Origin: Thalia democratica
Lineage: Eukaryota
Assembly: GCA_965202585.1 (NCBI GenBank)
Contig: OZ241834.1
Coordinates: forward strand, 25,048,001 to 25,112,000
DNA length: 64,000 nucleotides
Direction of reading: 5' to 3'
In this document: positions 7,704-64,000 of the stretch, piece after piece
How positions within the stretch are numbered: position 1 is the stretch's first letter
How the letters are laid out: every line of letters starts with the position of its first letter
Translations under genes and position numbers: made by a program
The notes under the pieces: generated by a model
Database searches by the model: none
Told to the model about the DNA's origin: nothing
The model's input: only the letters and a program-made list of their open reading frames with translations

Positions 7704-8346
7704 ATGGCCCGCAAAACACCAACCAACCGCAATTCAATTGGAGGAAAAGCTCCTCGCAAGCAACGTGTCAGTATTGGAGTTATGGTTAGTACTTTTAATG
7801 TAAACTTATCTATTATTATATTTATGTTATATGTTTTTATTTTATCAACAGATTGAAATCTTGGCAGAATTGAACGTTTTAATTCAAGCTAAACACCAAG
7901 ATATAGAGAACAAAATCCAAAACGCAACAGAACTTCACCAACTACACGCCATTGAAACAAACTACCATTCAAGTACAAACTTGCACCGACGAAAAGTTTT
8001 AGAATTAAAACGAAAATTTCGAAACATAAATTCTAAAACATTTAAAGACAAACTTGATAAACTTAAAAGTGAATTATGCCAGCACATGGACGCAACAGTT
8101 CAACGAATTCACACCAAAAGACAAGACTTGATGTATAAAGGTCTCACTCCGGAAAGAATGGAAAGTTTTCATCATTACGTAGCTGATGAGTCTACTGTAG
8201 GCGGTCAATGCTCAGTTTGCATTCAAGATGTTGAAGTTGGTAGAAAAGTGATACGTCTCGACTGCAAACACGAATTTTGTAAAGATTGCATTGAACAATG
8301 GTTTGCTGATCACAAAACTTGTCCTAATTGTAGACAATCATTTTAA
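7704..8346 (+). CDS. Unit 2: H3-tail-like/RING protein, 191 aa (K9N tail variant)
   Basis: Exons 7704-7784 + 7852-8346; splice sites intact. Confidence 0.8.
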
Positions 8347-8788
8347 TAAAAACATTAACTCTATTTTAAGTGTTATAAATTCTTAGTATTTTATATACGT
8401 TTTTTTTTCTTTGTCGCTTTAATAAATTCAGTACCTTTTTCTTCGTTTTTTTTTATTGGTAAACGTTTTAAAAATATTAAATACGAACTCGGATTAACCA
8501 CATCTAAAATTATTGAAAAGTATATGAACTTTGGTTGAGTGCGTTTAGAAAATTAACAAAGCACTTTTTGCATTTTAATGAAAATTTTATATAGACAAAC
8601 ACTTAAAAAATCATGTATTTTTAAAAACTAACTCATAACTTTTTCAGCCTATGTTAAAAAAAGTTTAAACTAAAGTTGTAAACTTTGAATAAAAAATTCA
8701 AAAATTGGTCACATTCGTCTACGTCCGTAACGTCTAGGTTTTGTCTATATAAGTAACAGTTATAAGTGATTTTAAAGCAAAAACTACA

Positions 8789-9430
8789 ATGGCCCGCAAA
8801 ACACCAACCAACCGCAAATCAATTGGAGGAAAAGCTCCCCGCAAGCAACTTGTCAGTATTGGAGTTATGGTTAGTACTTTTAATGTAAACTTATGTATTA
8901 TTATATTTATGTTACATAACATTATTTTATCAACAGATTGAAATCTTGGCAGAATTGGACGTTTTAATTCAAGGTAAGCACCAAGATATAGAGAACAAAA
9001 TTCAAAACGCAACAGAACTTCACCAACTACACGCCATTGAAACAAACTACCATTCAAGTACAAACTCGCACCGACGAAAAGTTTTAGAATTAAAACGAAA
9101 ATTTCGAAACATAAATTCTAAAACATTTAAAGACAAACTTGATAAACTTGAAAGTGAATTATGCCAGCACATGGACGCAACAGTTCAACGAATTCACACC
9201 AAAAGACAAGACTTGATGTCTAAAGGTCTCACTCCGGAAAGGATGGAAAGTTTCGTCATTACGTAGCTGATGAGTCTACTATAGGCGGTCAATGCTCAGT
9301 TTGCATTCAAGATCTTGAAGTTGGTCGAAAAGTGATACGTCTCGACTGCAAACATGAATTTTGTAAAGAATGCATTGAACAATGGTTTGCTGATCACAAA
9401 ACTTGTCCTAATTGTAGACAATCGTTTTAA
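8789..9430 (+). pseudogene. Unit 3: divergent copy with a 1-nt deletion before the RING; tail has L20 as in H3
   Basis: Exons 8789-8869 + 8937-; GAAAGTTTCGTC at ~9247-9258 vs consensus GAAAGTTTTCATC shifts the frame. Confidence 0.85.
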
Positions 9431-9878
9431 TAAAAACATTAACTCTATTATAAGTGTTATAAATTCTTAGTATTTTATATACGTTTTTTTTCTTTGTCGC
9501 TTTAATAAATTCAGTACCTTTTTCTTCGTTTTTTTTATTGGTAAACGTTTTAAAAATATTAAATATGAACTCGGTTTAACCAGATCTAAAGTTATTGAAA
9601 AGTATATGAACTTTGGTTGAATGCGTTTAGAAAATTAACAAAACACTTTTTGCATTTTAATGAAAATTTTATGTAGACAAACACTTAAAAAGGTTATAAA
9701 TCATGTATCCTTAAAAACTAACTCATAACTTTTTCAGCCTATGTTAAAAAAAATTTAAACTAAAGTTGTAAACTTTGAATAAAAAATTCCAAAATTGGTC
9801 ACATTCGTCTACGTCCGTAACGTCTAGGTTTTGTCTATATAAGTAACAGTTATAAGTGATTTTAAAGCAAAAACTACA

Positions 9879-10557
9879 ATGGCCCGCAAAACACCAACCA
9901 ACCGCAAATCAATTGGAGGAAAAGCTCCTCGCAAGCAACGTGTCAGTATTGGAGTTATGGTTAGTACTTTTAATGTAAACCTATCTATTATTATATTTAT
10001 GTTATATATTGTTATTTTATCAACAGATTGAAATCTTGGCAGAATTGAACGTTTTAATTCAAGCTAAACACCAAGATATAGAGAACAAAATCCAAAACGC
10101 AACAGAACTTCACCAACTACACGCCATTGAAACAAACTACCATTCAAGTACAAACTTGCACCGACGAAAAGTTTTAGAATTAAAACGAAAATTTCGAAAC
10201 ATAAATTCTAAAACATTTAAAGACAAACTTGATAAACTTGAAAGTGAATTATGCCAGCACATGGACGCAACAGTTCAACGAATTCACACCAAAAGACAAG
10301 ACTTGATGTATAAAGGTCTCACTCCGGAAAGAATGGAAAGTTTTCATCATTACGTAGCTGATGAGTCTACTGTAGGCGGTCAATGCTCAGTTTGCATTCA
10401 AGATGTTGAAGTTGGTAGAAAAGTCGACTCGACTGCAAACATGAATTTTGTAAAGAATGCATTGAACAATGGTTTGCTGATCACAAAACTTGTCCTAATT
10501 GTAGACAATCATTTTAATAAAAACATTAACTCTATTATAAGTGTTATAAATTCTTAG
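9879..10557 (+). pseudogene. Unit 4: 4-nt deletion inside the RING, losing the last six zinc ligands
   Basis: Exons 9879-9959 + 10027-; AAAAGTCGACTCGAC vs consensus AAAAGTGATACGTCTCGAC at ~10425; frameshifted tail ends at 10557. Confidence 0.85.
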
Positions 10558-10732
10558 TATAATTTTATTTTATACGTTTTATTTTCTTTGTCGCTTTAAT
10601 AAATTCAGTACCTTTTTCTTCGTGTTTTTTTATTGGTAAACATTTTAAAAATATTAAATACGAACTCGGTTTAACAAGATCTAAAGTTATTGAAAAGTAT
10701 ATGAATTTTGGTTGAATGCGTTTAGAAAATTA

Positions 10733-61453: not shown

Positions 61454-62096
61454 ATGGCCCGCAAAACACCAACCAACCGCAAATCAATTGGAGGAAAAGC
61501 TCCTCGCAAGCAACGTGTCAGTATTGGAGTTATGGTTAGTACTTTTAATGTAAACTTATCTATTATTATATTTATGTTATATATTGTTATTTTATCAACA
61601 GATTGAAATCTTGGCAGAATTGAACGTTTTAATTCAAGCTAAACACCAAGGTATAGAGAACAAAATCCAAAACGCAACAGAACTTCACCAACTACACGCC
61701 ATTGAAACAAACTACCATTCAAGTACAAACTTGCACCGACGAAAAGTTTTAGAATTAAAACGAAAATTTCGAAACATAAATTCTAAAACATTTAAAGACA
61801 AACTTGATAAACTTGAAAGTGAATTATGCCAGCACATGGACGCAACAGTTCAACGAATTCACACCAAAAGACAAGACTTGATGTATAAAGGTCTCACTCC
61901 GGAAAGAATGGAAAGTTTTCATCATTACGTAGCTGATGAGTCTACTGTAGGCGGTCAATGCTCAGTTTGCATTCAAGATGTTGAAGTTGGTAGAAAAGTG
62001 ATACGTCTCGACTGCAAACATGAATTTTGTAAAGAATGCATTGAACAATGGTTTGCTGATCACAAAACTTGTCCTAATTGTAGACAATCATTTTAA
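61454..62096 (+). CDS. Unit 45: H3-tail-like/RING protein, 191 aa
   Basis: Exons 61454-61534 + 61602-62096. Confidence 0.82.
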
Positions 62097-62552
62097 TAAA
62101 AACATTAACTCTATTATAAGTGTTATAAATTCTTAGTATAATTTTATTTTATACGTTTTATTTTCTTTGTCGCTTTAATAAATTCAGTACCTTTTTCTTC
62201 GTTTTTTTTTATTGGTAAACATTTTAAAAATATTAAATACGAACTCGGTTTAACAAGATCTAAAGTTATTGAAAAGTATATGAACTTTGGTTGAATGCGT
62301 TTAGAAAATTAACAAAACACTTTTTGCATTTTAATGAAAATTTTATGTAGACAAACACTTAAAAAGGCTATAAATCATGTATTTTTAAAAACTAACTCAT
62401 AACCTTTTCAGCCTATGTTAAAAAAAGTTTAAACCAATGTTGTAAACTTTGAATAAAAAAATCCAAAATTGGTCACATTCGTCTACGTCCGTAACGTCTA
62501 GGTTTTGTCTATATAACTAACAGTTATAAGTGATTTTCAGGCAAAAACTACA

Positions 62553-63195
62553 ATGGCCCGCAAAACACCAACCAACCGCAAATCAATTGGAGGAAAAGCT
62601 CCTCGCAAGCAACGTGTCAGTATTGGAGTTATGGTTAGTACTTTTAATGTAAACTTATCTATTATTATATTTATGTTATATATTGTTATTTTATCAACAG
62701 ATTGAAATCTTGGCAGAATTGAACGTTTTAATTCAAGCTAAACACCAAGATATAGAGAACAAAATCCAAAACGCAACAGAACTTTACCAACTACACGCCA
62801 TTGAAACAAACTACCATTCAAGTACAAACTTGCACCGACGAAAAGTTTTAGAATTAAAACGAAAATTTCGAAACATAAATTCTAAAAAATTTAAAGACAA
62901 ACTTGATAAACTTGAAAGTGAATTATGCCAGCACATGGACGCAACAGTTCAACGAATTCACACCAAAAGACAAGACTTGATGTATAAAGGTCTCACTCCG
63001 GAAAGAATGGAAAGTTTTCATCATTACGTAGCTGATGAGTCTACTGTAGGCGGTCAATGCTCAGTTTGCATTCAAGATGTTGAAGTTGGTAGAAAAGTGA
63101 TACGTCTCGACTGCAAACATGAATTTTGTAAAGAATGCATTGAACAATGGTTTGCTGATCACAAAACTTGTCCTAATTGTAGACAATCATTTTAA
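62553..63195 (+). CDS. Unit 46: H3-tail-like/RING protein, 191 aa
   Basis: Exons 62553-62633 + 62701-63195. Confidence 0.82.
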
Positions 63196-63650
63196 TAAAA
63201 ACATTAACTCTATTATAAGTGTTATAAATTCTTAGTATAATTTTATTTTATACGTTTTATTTTCTTTGTCGCTTTAATAAATTCAGTACCTTTTTCTTCG
63301 TTTTTTTTATCGGTAAACATTTTAAAAATATTAAATACGAACTCGGTTTAACCAGATCTAAAGTTATTGAAAAGTATATGAACTTTGGTTGAATGCGTTT
63401 AGAAAATTAACAAAACACTTTTTGCATTTTAATGAAAATTTTATGTAGACAAACACTTAAAAAGGCTATAAATCATGTATTTTTAAAAACTAACTCATAA
63501 CCTTTTCAGCCTATGTTAAAAAAAGTTTAAACCAATGTTGTAAACTTTGAATAAAAAATTCCAAAATTGGTCACATTCGTCTACGTCCGTAACGTCTAGA
63601 GTTTGTCTATATAAATAACAGTTATAAGTGATTTTCAAGCAAAAACTACA

Positions 63651-64000
63651 ATGGCCCGCAAAACACCAACCAACCGCAAATCAATTGGAGGAAAAGCTCC
63701 TCGCAAGCAACGTGTCAGTATTGGAGTTATGGTTAGTACTTTTAATGTAAACTTATCTATTATTATATTTATGTTATATATTGTTATTTTATCAACAGAT
63801 TGAAATCTTGGCAGAATTGAACGTTTTAATTCAAGCTAAACACCAAGATATAGAGAACAAAATCCAAAACGCAACAGAACTTCACCAACTACACGCCATT
63901 GAAACAAACTACCATTCAAGTACAAACTTGCACCGACGAAAAGTTTTAGAATTAAAACGAAAATTTCGAAACATAAATTCTAAACATTTAAAGACAAACT
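63651..64000 (+). pseudogene. Unit 47: cut by the window edge; carries the recurrent exon-2 1-nt deletion
   Basis: Exon 1 63651-63731, exon 2 from 63799; TCTAAACATTT at ~63982. Confidence 0.7.

Follow-up and report, generated by a model that had tools for sequence, protein, structure and literature searches.

In a window of 64,000 nucleotides (nt) from Thalia democratica (contig OZ241834.1, positions 25,048,001 to 25,112,000 of the forward strand), the DNA from position 6814 on is a tandem array of ~1.098-kb gene units. Each complete unit joins the start and tail of histone H3, in frame, to a RING E3 ubiquitin ligase domain. We read the unit as a young chimeric gene that arose by promoter capture, in which the H3 piece would supply a start and a basic leader for nuclear import or chromatin binding to a dosage-amplified ligase, and we give this account an even chance. 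What comes from the histone may amount to just a captured start and a nuclear address, and not to a bait aimed at chromatin proteins. At the least, the array offers a well-resolved new gene built from a histone 5' end. One genome holds the parents of the gene, its junction, decayed copies that act as neutral controls and a second, independent fusion.

Structure of the array and its genes

Copies opened by an ATG number 46 in the window (7704-63651) and are spaced 1085-1101 nt apart except across two insertions. With the next 20 kb of the contig included there are 59, and the array runs to about C10:25,126,600 (C and L numbers are our labels for contigs and loci). The layout is given in Table 1 for the first full unit and repeats in every unit. 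An 81-nt exon 1 is separated by a 67-nt intron (GTTAGT...TCAACAG) from exon 2, to which it joins in frame. Eight of 10 RING paralogs on C2 have a 14-codon first exon, a GTTAGT donor, a phase-0 intron of 346-532 nt and the same acceptor before exon 2, and the last six exon-1 codons of the window gene are homologous to the end of the paralogs' first exon. Judged by this homology the intron is real. A hidden 81-nt exon followed by this intron and an in-frame exon 2 had been proposed in an earlier note on the letters of the window (the original prediction), and the shared place and phase of the paralog introns support it. The claim that every copy opens with a TATA box and the peptide then quoted was too broad: the layout is present in the 46 window copies, whereas the exact peptide occurs in 31 of 45 parsed copies, the copy at 7704 has K9N and a CATATAA box, and the unit at 6814-7249 lacks exon 1.

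An intact product of 191-192 amino acids with GT-AG splice sites is encoded by 34 of the 46 window copies and by 40 of the 59 overall. The remaining 19 are broken by a frameshift, a stop or a lost acceptor AG (lost in five). Eight copies (49380, 54869, 55966, 63651 and four beyond the window) encode an identical 119-amino-acid frameshifted product; thus, a broken copy itself spread through the array.

Origin of the promoter and tail

Over residues 1-19 after the Met, the tail matches the H3 of this genome at 14 of 19 positions in register, as first reported, and at 52 of 60 nt; the differences are T3K, K4T, Q5P, A7N and T11I. The 27-amino-acid exon 1 matches histone H3 chains in PDB, the best with an expectation value (E) of 4e-4. 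The DNA homology extends well upstream. At C2:55.50 Mb lies an intact stem-loop H3 variant gene with which the unit shares 75% identity in a 282-nt alignment; this takes in the first codons and ~210 nt of DNA ahead of them. In an alignment of the upstream DNA to 31 H3 loci, three (all at C2:55.4-55.7 Mb) scored 144, 139 and 92, whereas the others scored 21-37 and shuffled sequences reached maxima of 26-33. The homology continues to codon 21, which encodes Leu, as in H3, in the copy at 8789 and in X1 and X2, two relatives assembled from RNA libraries. Homology to H3 genes spans the promoter as well as the tail: the promoter, 5' untranslated region (UTR) and codons 1-21 descend from a stem-loop H3 variant gene, by capture and not by mimicry. 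The "mimic" of the original prediction, in the sense of convergence, is therefore better described as a piece of an actual H3 gene, promoter included.

By the same comparisons, the H3 promoter and tail (the H3 cassette) replaced the promoter and the first seven codons of a RING gene, in frame. Both parents, the H3 variant cassette and exon 1 of a RING paralog, can be identified in the genome with a defined junction, which bears out the proposed layout of H3 tail and RING. The junction pattern was matched at 58 places in the array and in one ordinary H3 gene elsewhere; the junction of the cassette with RING exon 1 occurs only in this array. Left of the array, homology to DNA further upstream of the cassette (6618-6751) marks a remnant of the founder copy.

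The tree of the cassettes has a star-like shape and low support, so that no one gene can be singled out as donor. Two candidate donors were rejected. Intron-containing H3 genes standing head-to-head with the closest RING paralogs gave upstream scores of 21-29, within the shuffle range, and for an H3 gene at C10:28.58 Mb the match was limited to the coding part. A strongly divergent full-length H3 variant at C2:55.67 Mb (L074:1527) shares Q5P with the chimera tail.

The RING domain and helical bundle of exon 2

In Pfam, exon 2 scored 50.9 bits against zf-RING_2 (cut-off 27.3) and 30.9 bits against zf-C3HC4 (cut-off 21). The Pfam search found no histone family in exon 2, and the predicted structure is a three-helix bundle plus a RING, in keeping with the original view that there is no histone fold. 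All eight zinc ligands are present in RING spacing, and their columns are invariant or nearly so in 50 homologs. Alignment to solved relatives also identifies the Trp and Pro of the E2 (ubiquitin-conjugating enzyme) face and the Arg after the last Cys, residues that we presume to act in E2 binding as in other RINGs. The closest solved relatives by sequence are RLIM/RNF12, RNF4 and Ark2C (best PDB match, E 2e-11). An AlphaFold model built on a 50-sequence alignment has a mean predicted local distance difference test score of 94 and consists of three long helices followed by the RING, which superposes on RNF12 with a root-mean-square deviation (rmsd) of 0.9 Å over 68 columns and on RNF12-E2 complexes with 0.9-1.5 Å. 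The fifth zinc ligand is a Cys where RLIM has a His. This Cys is invariant in the family, making the domain C3HC4 and not RING-H2, and orthology to the RING-H2 proteins RLIM/RNF6 or Arkadia was rejected on this ground. Exon 2 is, on sequence and model, a RING E3 ligase domain of the C3HC4 type with an E2-binding face and predicted activity. The three-helix bundle gave generic fold matches (Z up to 12) from which no specific family emerges; it is a candidate substrate or partner module.

The RING family of this genome was sampled by scoring 150 matches among 2180 first-look candidates, with members on C1, C2, C4, C7, C8 and C10. The nearest paralogs, at C2:94.2-94.9 Mb, are 58-65% identical to the window gene. 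Against 10 paralogs, the ratio of non-synonymous to synonymous divergence (dN/dS) was 0.26-0.57 for the RING region and 0.57-0.85 for the bundle; among the paralogs themselves it was 0.74-1.3 for the bundle (six pairs). From this pattern we infer a conserved catalytic part and a fast-changing specificity part.

Genes with a helical bundle, an RLIM-like RING and a short first exon form a very large, lineage-expanded family spread over many contigs, with a bundle dN/dS near 1 among paralogs. At C2:93.1-94.9 Mb (L031-L041, L051-L058), RING paralogs stand head-to-head with intron-containing H3.3-like variant genes, 6-13 kb apart, in repeated segmental units.

Spread of the H3 cassette in the genome

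We searched the genome for the donor promoter and scored 40 of 107 candidates. The other cassette loci are of three kinds: intact H3 variants, fusions to a SANT-like protein and decayed copies borne by elements. The intact variants at C2:81.4-82.1 and 84.6-84.8 Mb (L106-L108, L112-L119) are interleaved with RING paralogs; they have Q19K, L20I and a C-terminal extension of one residue.

The second fusion family places the same H3 promoter and H3 residues 1-14 (with K4E) on a SANT-like protein, to which an expanded family on C1 is related. Two copies are intact and lie on unplaced contigs, L104:2961-3455 (C43) and L109:1537-2067 (C829), and four of the six are broken: L092, L093, L100 (C7:35 Mb) and L125 (C6). 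By profile, the protein resembles SMRT (E 0.0035) and RERE (E 0.008), with no family reaching its cut-off in Pfam. More distant SANT paralogs also contain H3-like words, but these were set aside because their DNA is not homologous to the cassette.

Ten cassette copies (L094-L099, L101, L103, L105, L111) lie in or beside elements that end in a GC-rich terminal repeat and that we take to be hAT-like. Nine of them, from about four lineages, could be aligned, and in every one either the ATG is gone or the frame breaks within 20 codons; in the tenth, an insertion interrupts the cassette before the ATG position. These elements are a possible vehicle for spreading a histone promoter round the genome. 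On the DNA homology, at least two different gene families have captured the same donor cassette.

Divergence of the tail and the array copies

Divergence of the tail was measured against a majority proxy of the cassette, taken as the inferred ancestor. The decayed controls were five element copies and the partly deleted L111; L094, L095 and L097, in which the homology ends early, were left out. The chimera tail has 7 changes in 60 nt (0.117), 6 of them non-synonymous. For the same segment, the decayed copies gave 0.085-0.12 and intact H3 genes 0.017-0.05. Since its divergence equals that of decayed copies and exceeds that of intact H3 genes, the tail appears not to be held to the H3 sequence. 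The start codon, the reading frame and G12-Q19 are kept.

X1 and X2 are real relatives (~95% identity): X1 differs at 15 of 410 nt and X2 at 18 of 344. Neither has an amino-acid change in codons 1-20, as opposed to 7 and 6 changes in the other coding parts that their contigs cover. Among four database variants of the unspliced frame, a single tail change was counted. Within the array, K9N occurs in 2 of 59 copies and P16L in 4 of 59. Distinct variants per site amount to 0.14-0.16 in coding DNA, 0.35 in the promoter and 0.28 in the 3' spacer. That the start, the frame across the junction, the two splice sites, an open exon and every ligand have lasted over the long term argues for a functional gene, with no single test reaching significance.

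A captured promoter with a proposed leader role, and alternative readings

The comparisons above show that a rearrangement joined the H3 variant promoter, 5' UTR and first 21 codons in frame to the last exon-1 codons of a gene for a helical bundle and RING, that the intron then shrank to 67 nt with both ends kept, and that the unit was amplified to about 59 copies. In the account that we favor, the promoter would give the ligase a new and strong window of expression, on the schedule of the H3 variant: proliferating or germ cells would transcribe the gene, splice and polyadenylate its RNA and, through the many copies, make the product at a high dose. Its RING would recruit E2~ubiquitin and its bundle would select substrates, as in the parent family, while G12-Q19 would serve as a nuclear import and chromatin-affinity signal that moves the ligase to the nucleus, leaving the K4/K9 half free to drift. 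The SANT-like family, which carries the same cassette with just 14 H3 residues, and the decayed cassettes in repeat elements support recurrent capture, and the chimera has kept the start and frame that the nine aligned element copies lost. Divergent H3 variants are often male-specific in Oikopleura dioica (PMC3156773; papers cited by PMC number are used for the portions available), which makes a germline role for the chimera a reasonable guess by analogy.

The role as nuclear address finds support in yeast Kap123, whose first lysine pocket takes up H3 K14 with G13 and A15 on either side and whose second takes up K23 (PMC5677370): G13-K14-A15, the first of these importin motifs, is present in the chimera. 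Several observations weigh against the favored account. K23, for the second pocket, is absent. All six non-synonymous tail changes fall in codons 4-12 and none in codons 13-20, a clustering that is not significant, and the X2 tail has 1 change in 60 nt as opposed to 13 in 161 elsewhere (P = 0.12). The change-free codons 13-20 and the invariance of the tail in relatives would also be compatible with a tail under selection because it acts as a ligand. The 59 copies carry 21 variants that are synonymous and 65 that are non-synonymous or stops (3 and 3 in the tail), a ratio of non-synonymous to synonymous polymorphism (pN/pS) of 0.77 (P = 0.34). This is close to neutral and is what recent amplification or relaxed copies would give. 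For the RING, the branch that separates the chimera from the C2 majority has a ratio of 0.44 (P = 0.07), and this weak constraint may predate the fusion. Lastly, the spliced joint of exons 1 and 2 was absent from the four runs compared, a result from contigs at low depth that is not evidence of absence, and both RNA-library contigs that cross the intron retain it.

The transcript comparison covered 4 of 10 listed runs, each against one unit, and near-identical DNA was found in marine plankton runs, which makes a pelagic tunicate a likely host. The X1 contig is unspliced; its first letter, at 36178, falls between the TATA box and the ATG. The X2 contig goes past the TATA box on the upstream side, and an intron-retaining contig with this reach is probably DNA in an RNA library. 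Run X8 contained a 217-nt piece of exon 2 at depth 2.7, as opposed to depth 563 for an ordinary H3 contig in the same run. RNA mapping of the exon junction, which the original prediction had put forward as a check, thus gave no joint, and it is the splice sites shared with the paralogs that speak for splicing.

The original prediction went further and cast the protein as a device that baits and ubiquitylates, which we consider possible though rather unlikely. In a narrowed form of this idea, H3 writers would modify the tail, which would recruit readers or erasers, most plausibly through K14/R17/K18 or S10, for ubiquitylation by the RING. Or else the RING would mark its own K14/K18 and so yield an H3-ubiquitin decoy in soluble form. 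The loss of K4 would be adaptive and would reduce the range of targets. The absence of amino-acid changes in G12-Q19 and the near-invariance of the tail in relatives (no change in codons 1-20 of X1 and X2, one among the four database variants) fit this idea. R8-K9-S10 is kept, and T-N-R-K-S-I fits five of the six positions of the G9a motif (PMC4023394), so that K9 of the chimera tail may be methylated. The two partners, RING and SANT-like, are both plausible chromatin regulators, 59 copies would suit a dose-dependent sink, and PAF15, whose H3-like N-terminus is ubiquitylated and read, provides a precedent (PMC7060239). K4 was lost in both independent fusion families (K4T with RING, K4E with SANT-like), and T11I presumably improves the Aurora-kinase consensus at S10; these are hints, no more.

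Against a bait stands first the substitution load of the tail, which is that of dead copies. The MPP8 chromodomain contacts Q5, T6, A7 and R8 of H3 (PMC3192050), and two of these are altered in the chimera (Q5P, A7N). K4 is changed too. The K9/HP1 arm of the model is weakened. T3K alters the ARTK end read by the PHD finger of UHRF1, and in PAF15 a change at the Thr weakens that reading (PMC7060239). Copies with K9N and P16L exist, and neither the clustering of changes nor the conservation signals are significant. The comparisons gave the bait-and-ubiquitylate model no positive evidence; the tail has diverged from H3 as fast as decayed non-coding copies. The K14-K18 half is intact, and a version built on K14/K18 is conceivable. 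In its broadest form, which we likewise consider rather unlikely, the lineage would repeatedly build chromatin regulators by placing an H3 variant promoter and tail on effector domains (RING, SANT-like). The RING fusion would then be a K4-less H3-tail bait that ubiquitylates readers or erasers of K14/K18/S10, or an H3-ubiquitin decoy, in germ or proliferating cells.

We think it unlikely that the array is a tandem repeat that has the shape of a gene but little or no function, in which an in-frame fusion arose by chance, was multiplied through unequal crossing-over and is now decaying. The 19 broken copies of 59 and the pN/pS of 0.77 fit such a repeat, as do the lack of a spliced read beside the single shallow exon-2 piece of X8, the scattering of the cassette by rearrangements elsewhere in the genome and the four broken SANT fusions of six. 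However, despite ~18% promoter divergence on the branch, the chimera has kept its ATG, the in-frame junction, a stop-free exon of 164 codons and all RING ligands, and both splice sites survived an intron deletion of ~280 nt. Distinct variants per site are also lower in coding DNA than in the promoter or 3' spacer, and intact exon-2 reading frames recur in many independent marine contigs.

It is very improbable that most transcripts keep the intron, as a histone-type promoter might lead one to expect, with a 50-amino-acid peptide (H3 tail and a hydrophobic stretch) as the main product and the RING made little or from an internal start: the start of the unspliced X1 contig and a 50-amino-acid read-through frame open in the four database variants agree with it, but X2 points to DNA in such libraries, contigs cannot show a transcript start, the intron part is the most variable among the variants, and donor and acceptor are conserved with the paralogs.

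Searches for related proteins

A database search with exon 2 returned 10 unnamed metagenome proteins, none with the tail. Intact exon-2 open reading frames occur in many independent marine contigs, grouped in a 34-member cluster that is the closest to the window gene, and none of the 15 members listed is a 191-amino-acid protein. No H3-like motif was present among 149 listed representatives and the earlier matches, apart from the window's own exon 1. A tail query with longer lengths gave no match, a weak test that could not rank fusions above ordinary histones. In the JGI metagenomes, neither the exon-1 pattern nor the exon-2 protein found a match. The literature on H3-tail fusions, RING-linked histone mimics and tunicate RING or histone expansions, covered by titles and abstract openings with subscription journals largely outside, yielded no H3-tail fusion of this kind. 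The earlier impression that no protein of this architecture has been described thus holds for the literature searched, and the protein searches found unnamed metagenome relatives that lack the fused tail. The parts and the process (promoter capture, then amplification) are of known kinds; the combination appears undescribed.

A viral origin was rejected: no locus lies in viral contigs, the genes have spliceosomal-type introns, and inspection by eye of the long open frames in ~140 kb round the paralog clusters and array flanks (no family scan was made there) found no viral gene. Atlas matches to viral RING clusters were rejected as relatives, with just 119-139 of 256 features in common.

Comparison with known systems

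Like RLIM/RNF12, Ark2C/RNF165 and RNF38, the chimera has a C-terminal RING preceded by a GLT-type helix extension (E 2e-11, rmsd 0.9 Å). Unlike them, it has Cys and not His as fifth ligand, an N-terminus of H3 tail and three-helix bundle, and a length of 191 amino acids. Promoter capture and exon shuffling are a general source of chimeric genes that may later be amplified in tandem. The chimera shares with this class a 5' region and body from different parents, an in-frame junction and a recent array; it differs in that its 5' donor is a histone gene and that the same cassette was captured at least twice by different families.

Histone mimics include influenza NS1 and LIG1. In PAF15 and G9a, too, an H3-like peptide sits on a non-histone protein, and that of PAF15 is read and ubiquitylated by UHRF1 (PMC7060239). 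Unlike the known mimics, the chimera segment descends from an H3 gene with its promoter, spans 20 residues and is on the same chain as the RING. UHRF1 likewise brings an H3 tail and a RING together, but it binds the tail in trans through reader domains, whereas the chimera carries its tail in cis and has no reader domain. Oikopleura dioica, also a tunicate, has many H3 variants, some with stem-loops and some male-specific, and the donor here is such a divergent stem-loop H3. The O. dioica variants are full histones with no tail fusion described in the available portion of that report (PMC3156773), and they suggest germline expression of the donor here by analogy only.

The array illustrates one route by which "histone mimics" can arise, descent and not convergence, and allows one to ask which H3 residues persist once the tail leaves the nucleosome. 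Should the tail prove to act as bait, the protein would degrade chromatin readers naturally, and engineered degraders could be modeled on it.

Features of the window and minor observations

Table 1. Coordinates of the array, of the parts of its first full unit and of the neighboring features (positions in the window)
Feature	Position	Strand	Remarks
Left flank; 6618-6751 homologous to further-upstream flank of H3 cassette	6618..6813	+	72-73% over 96-133 nt to L104, L071, L109
Tandem array of ~1.098-kb units	6814..64000, continues past window	+	Pairwise difference mean 1.4%
5'-truncated first unit, part of exon 2 only	6814..7249	+	No promoter core, exon 1 or intron
Promoter and 5' UTR, H3 variant gene by homology; core motif 7632-7647, TATA-like box 7661-7667	7455..7703	+	
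Exon 1, H3-derived part by homology: Met and H3 residues 1-20	7704..7766	+	
Exon 1, RING-family-derived part (VSIGVM), ending at the paralogs' splice donor	7767..7784	+	Homologous to 3' end of paralogs' 14-codon first exon
Phase-0 GT-AG intron, 67 nt	7785..7851	+	Both ends align to 346-532-nt paralog intron
Exon 2, three-helix bundle (exon-2 helices 2-24, 28-55, 62-95)	7852..8136	+	Fast-evolving
Exon 2, RLIM/RNF12-like extended RING, C3HC4 ligands, plus stop codon	8137..8346	+	
AATAAA poly(A) signal	8421..8426	+	3' UTR context common to RING paralogs
3259-nt insertion with terminal inverted repeats and 8-nt target duplication	10733..13991	not assigned	Outside the gene
Second copy of 3259-nt insertion, 99.9% identical	26097..29355	not assigned	Arose through 15.4-kb block duplication within array

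The 3259-nt insertion, which we assume to be hAT-like, is non-coding and has relatives at L148 and L050. A two-copy 224-nt tandem repeat lies immediately left of the array (5846-6287). Elsewhere in the assembly, decayed nuclear copies of mitochondrial COX1 occur at C4:56.8-56.9 Mb (L138, L139) and on C757. Among five genetic codes compared, mitochondrial COX1 reads properly with AGA/AGG as glycine, the tunicate code (NCBI table 13).

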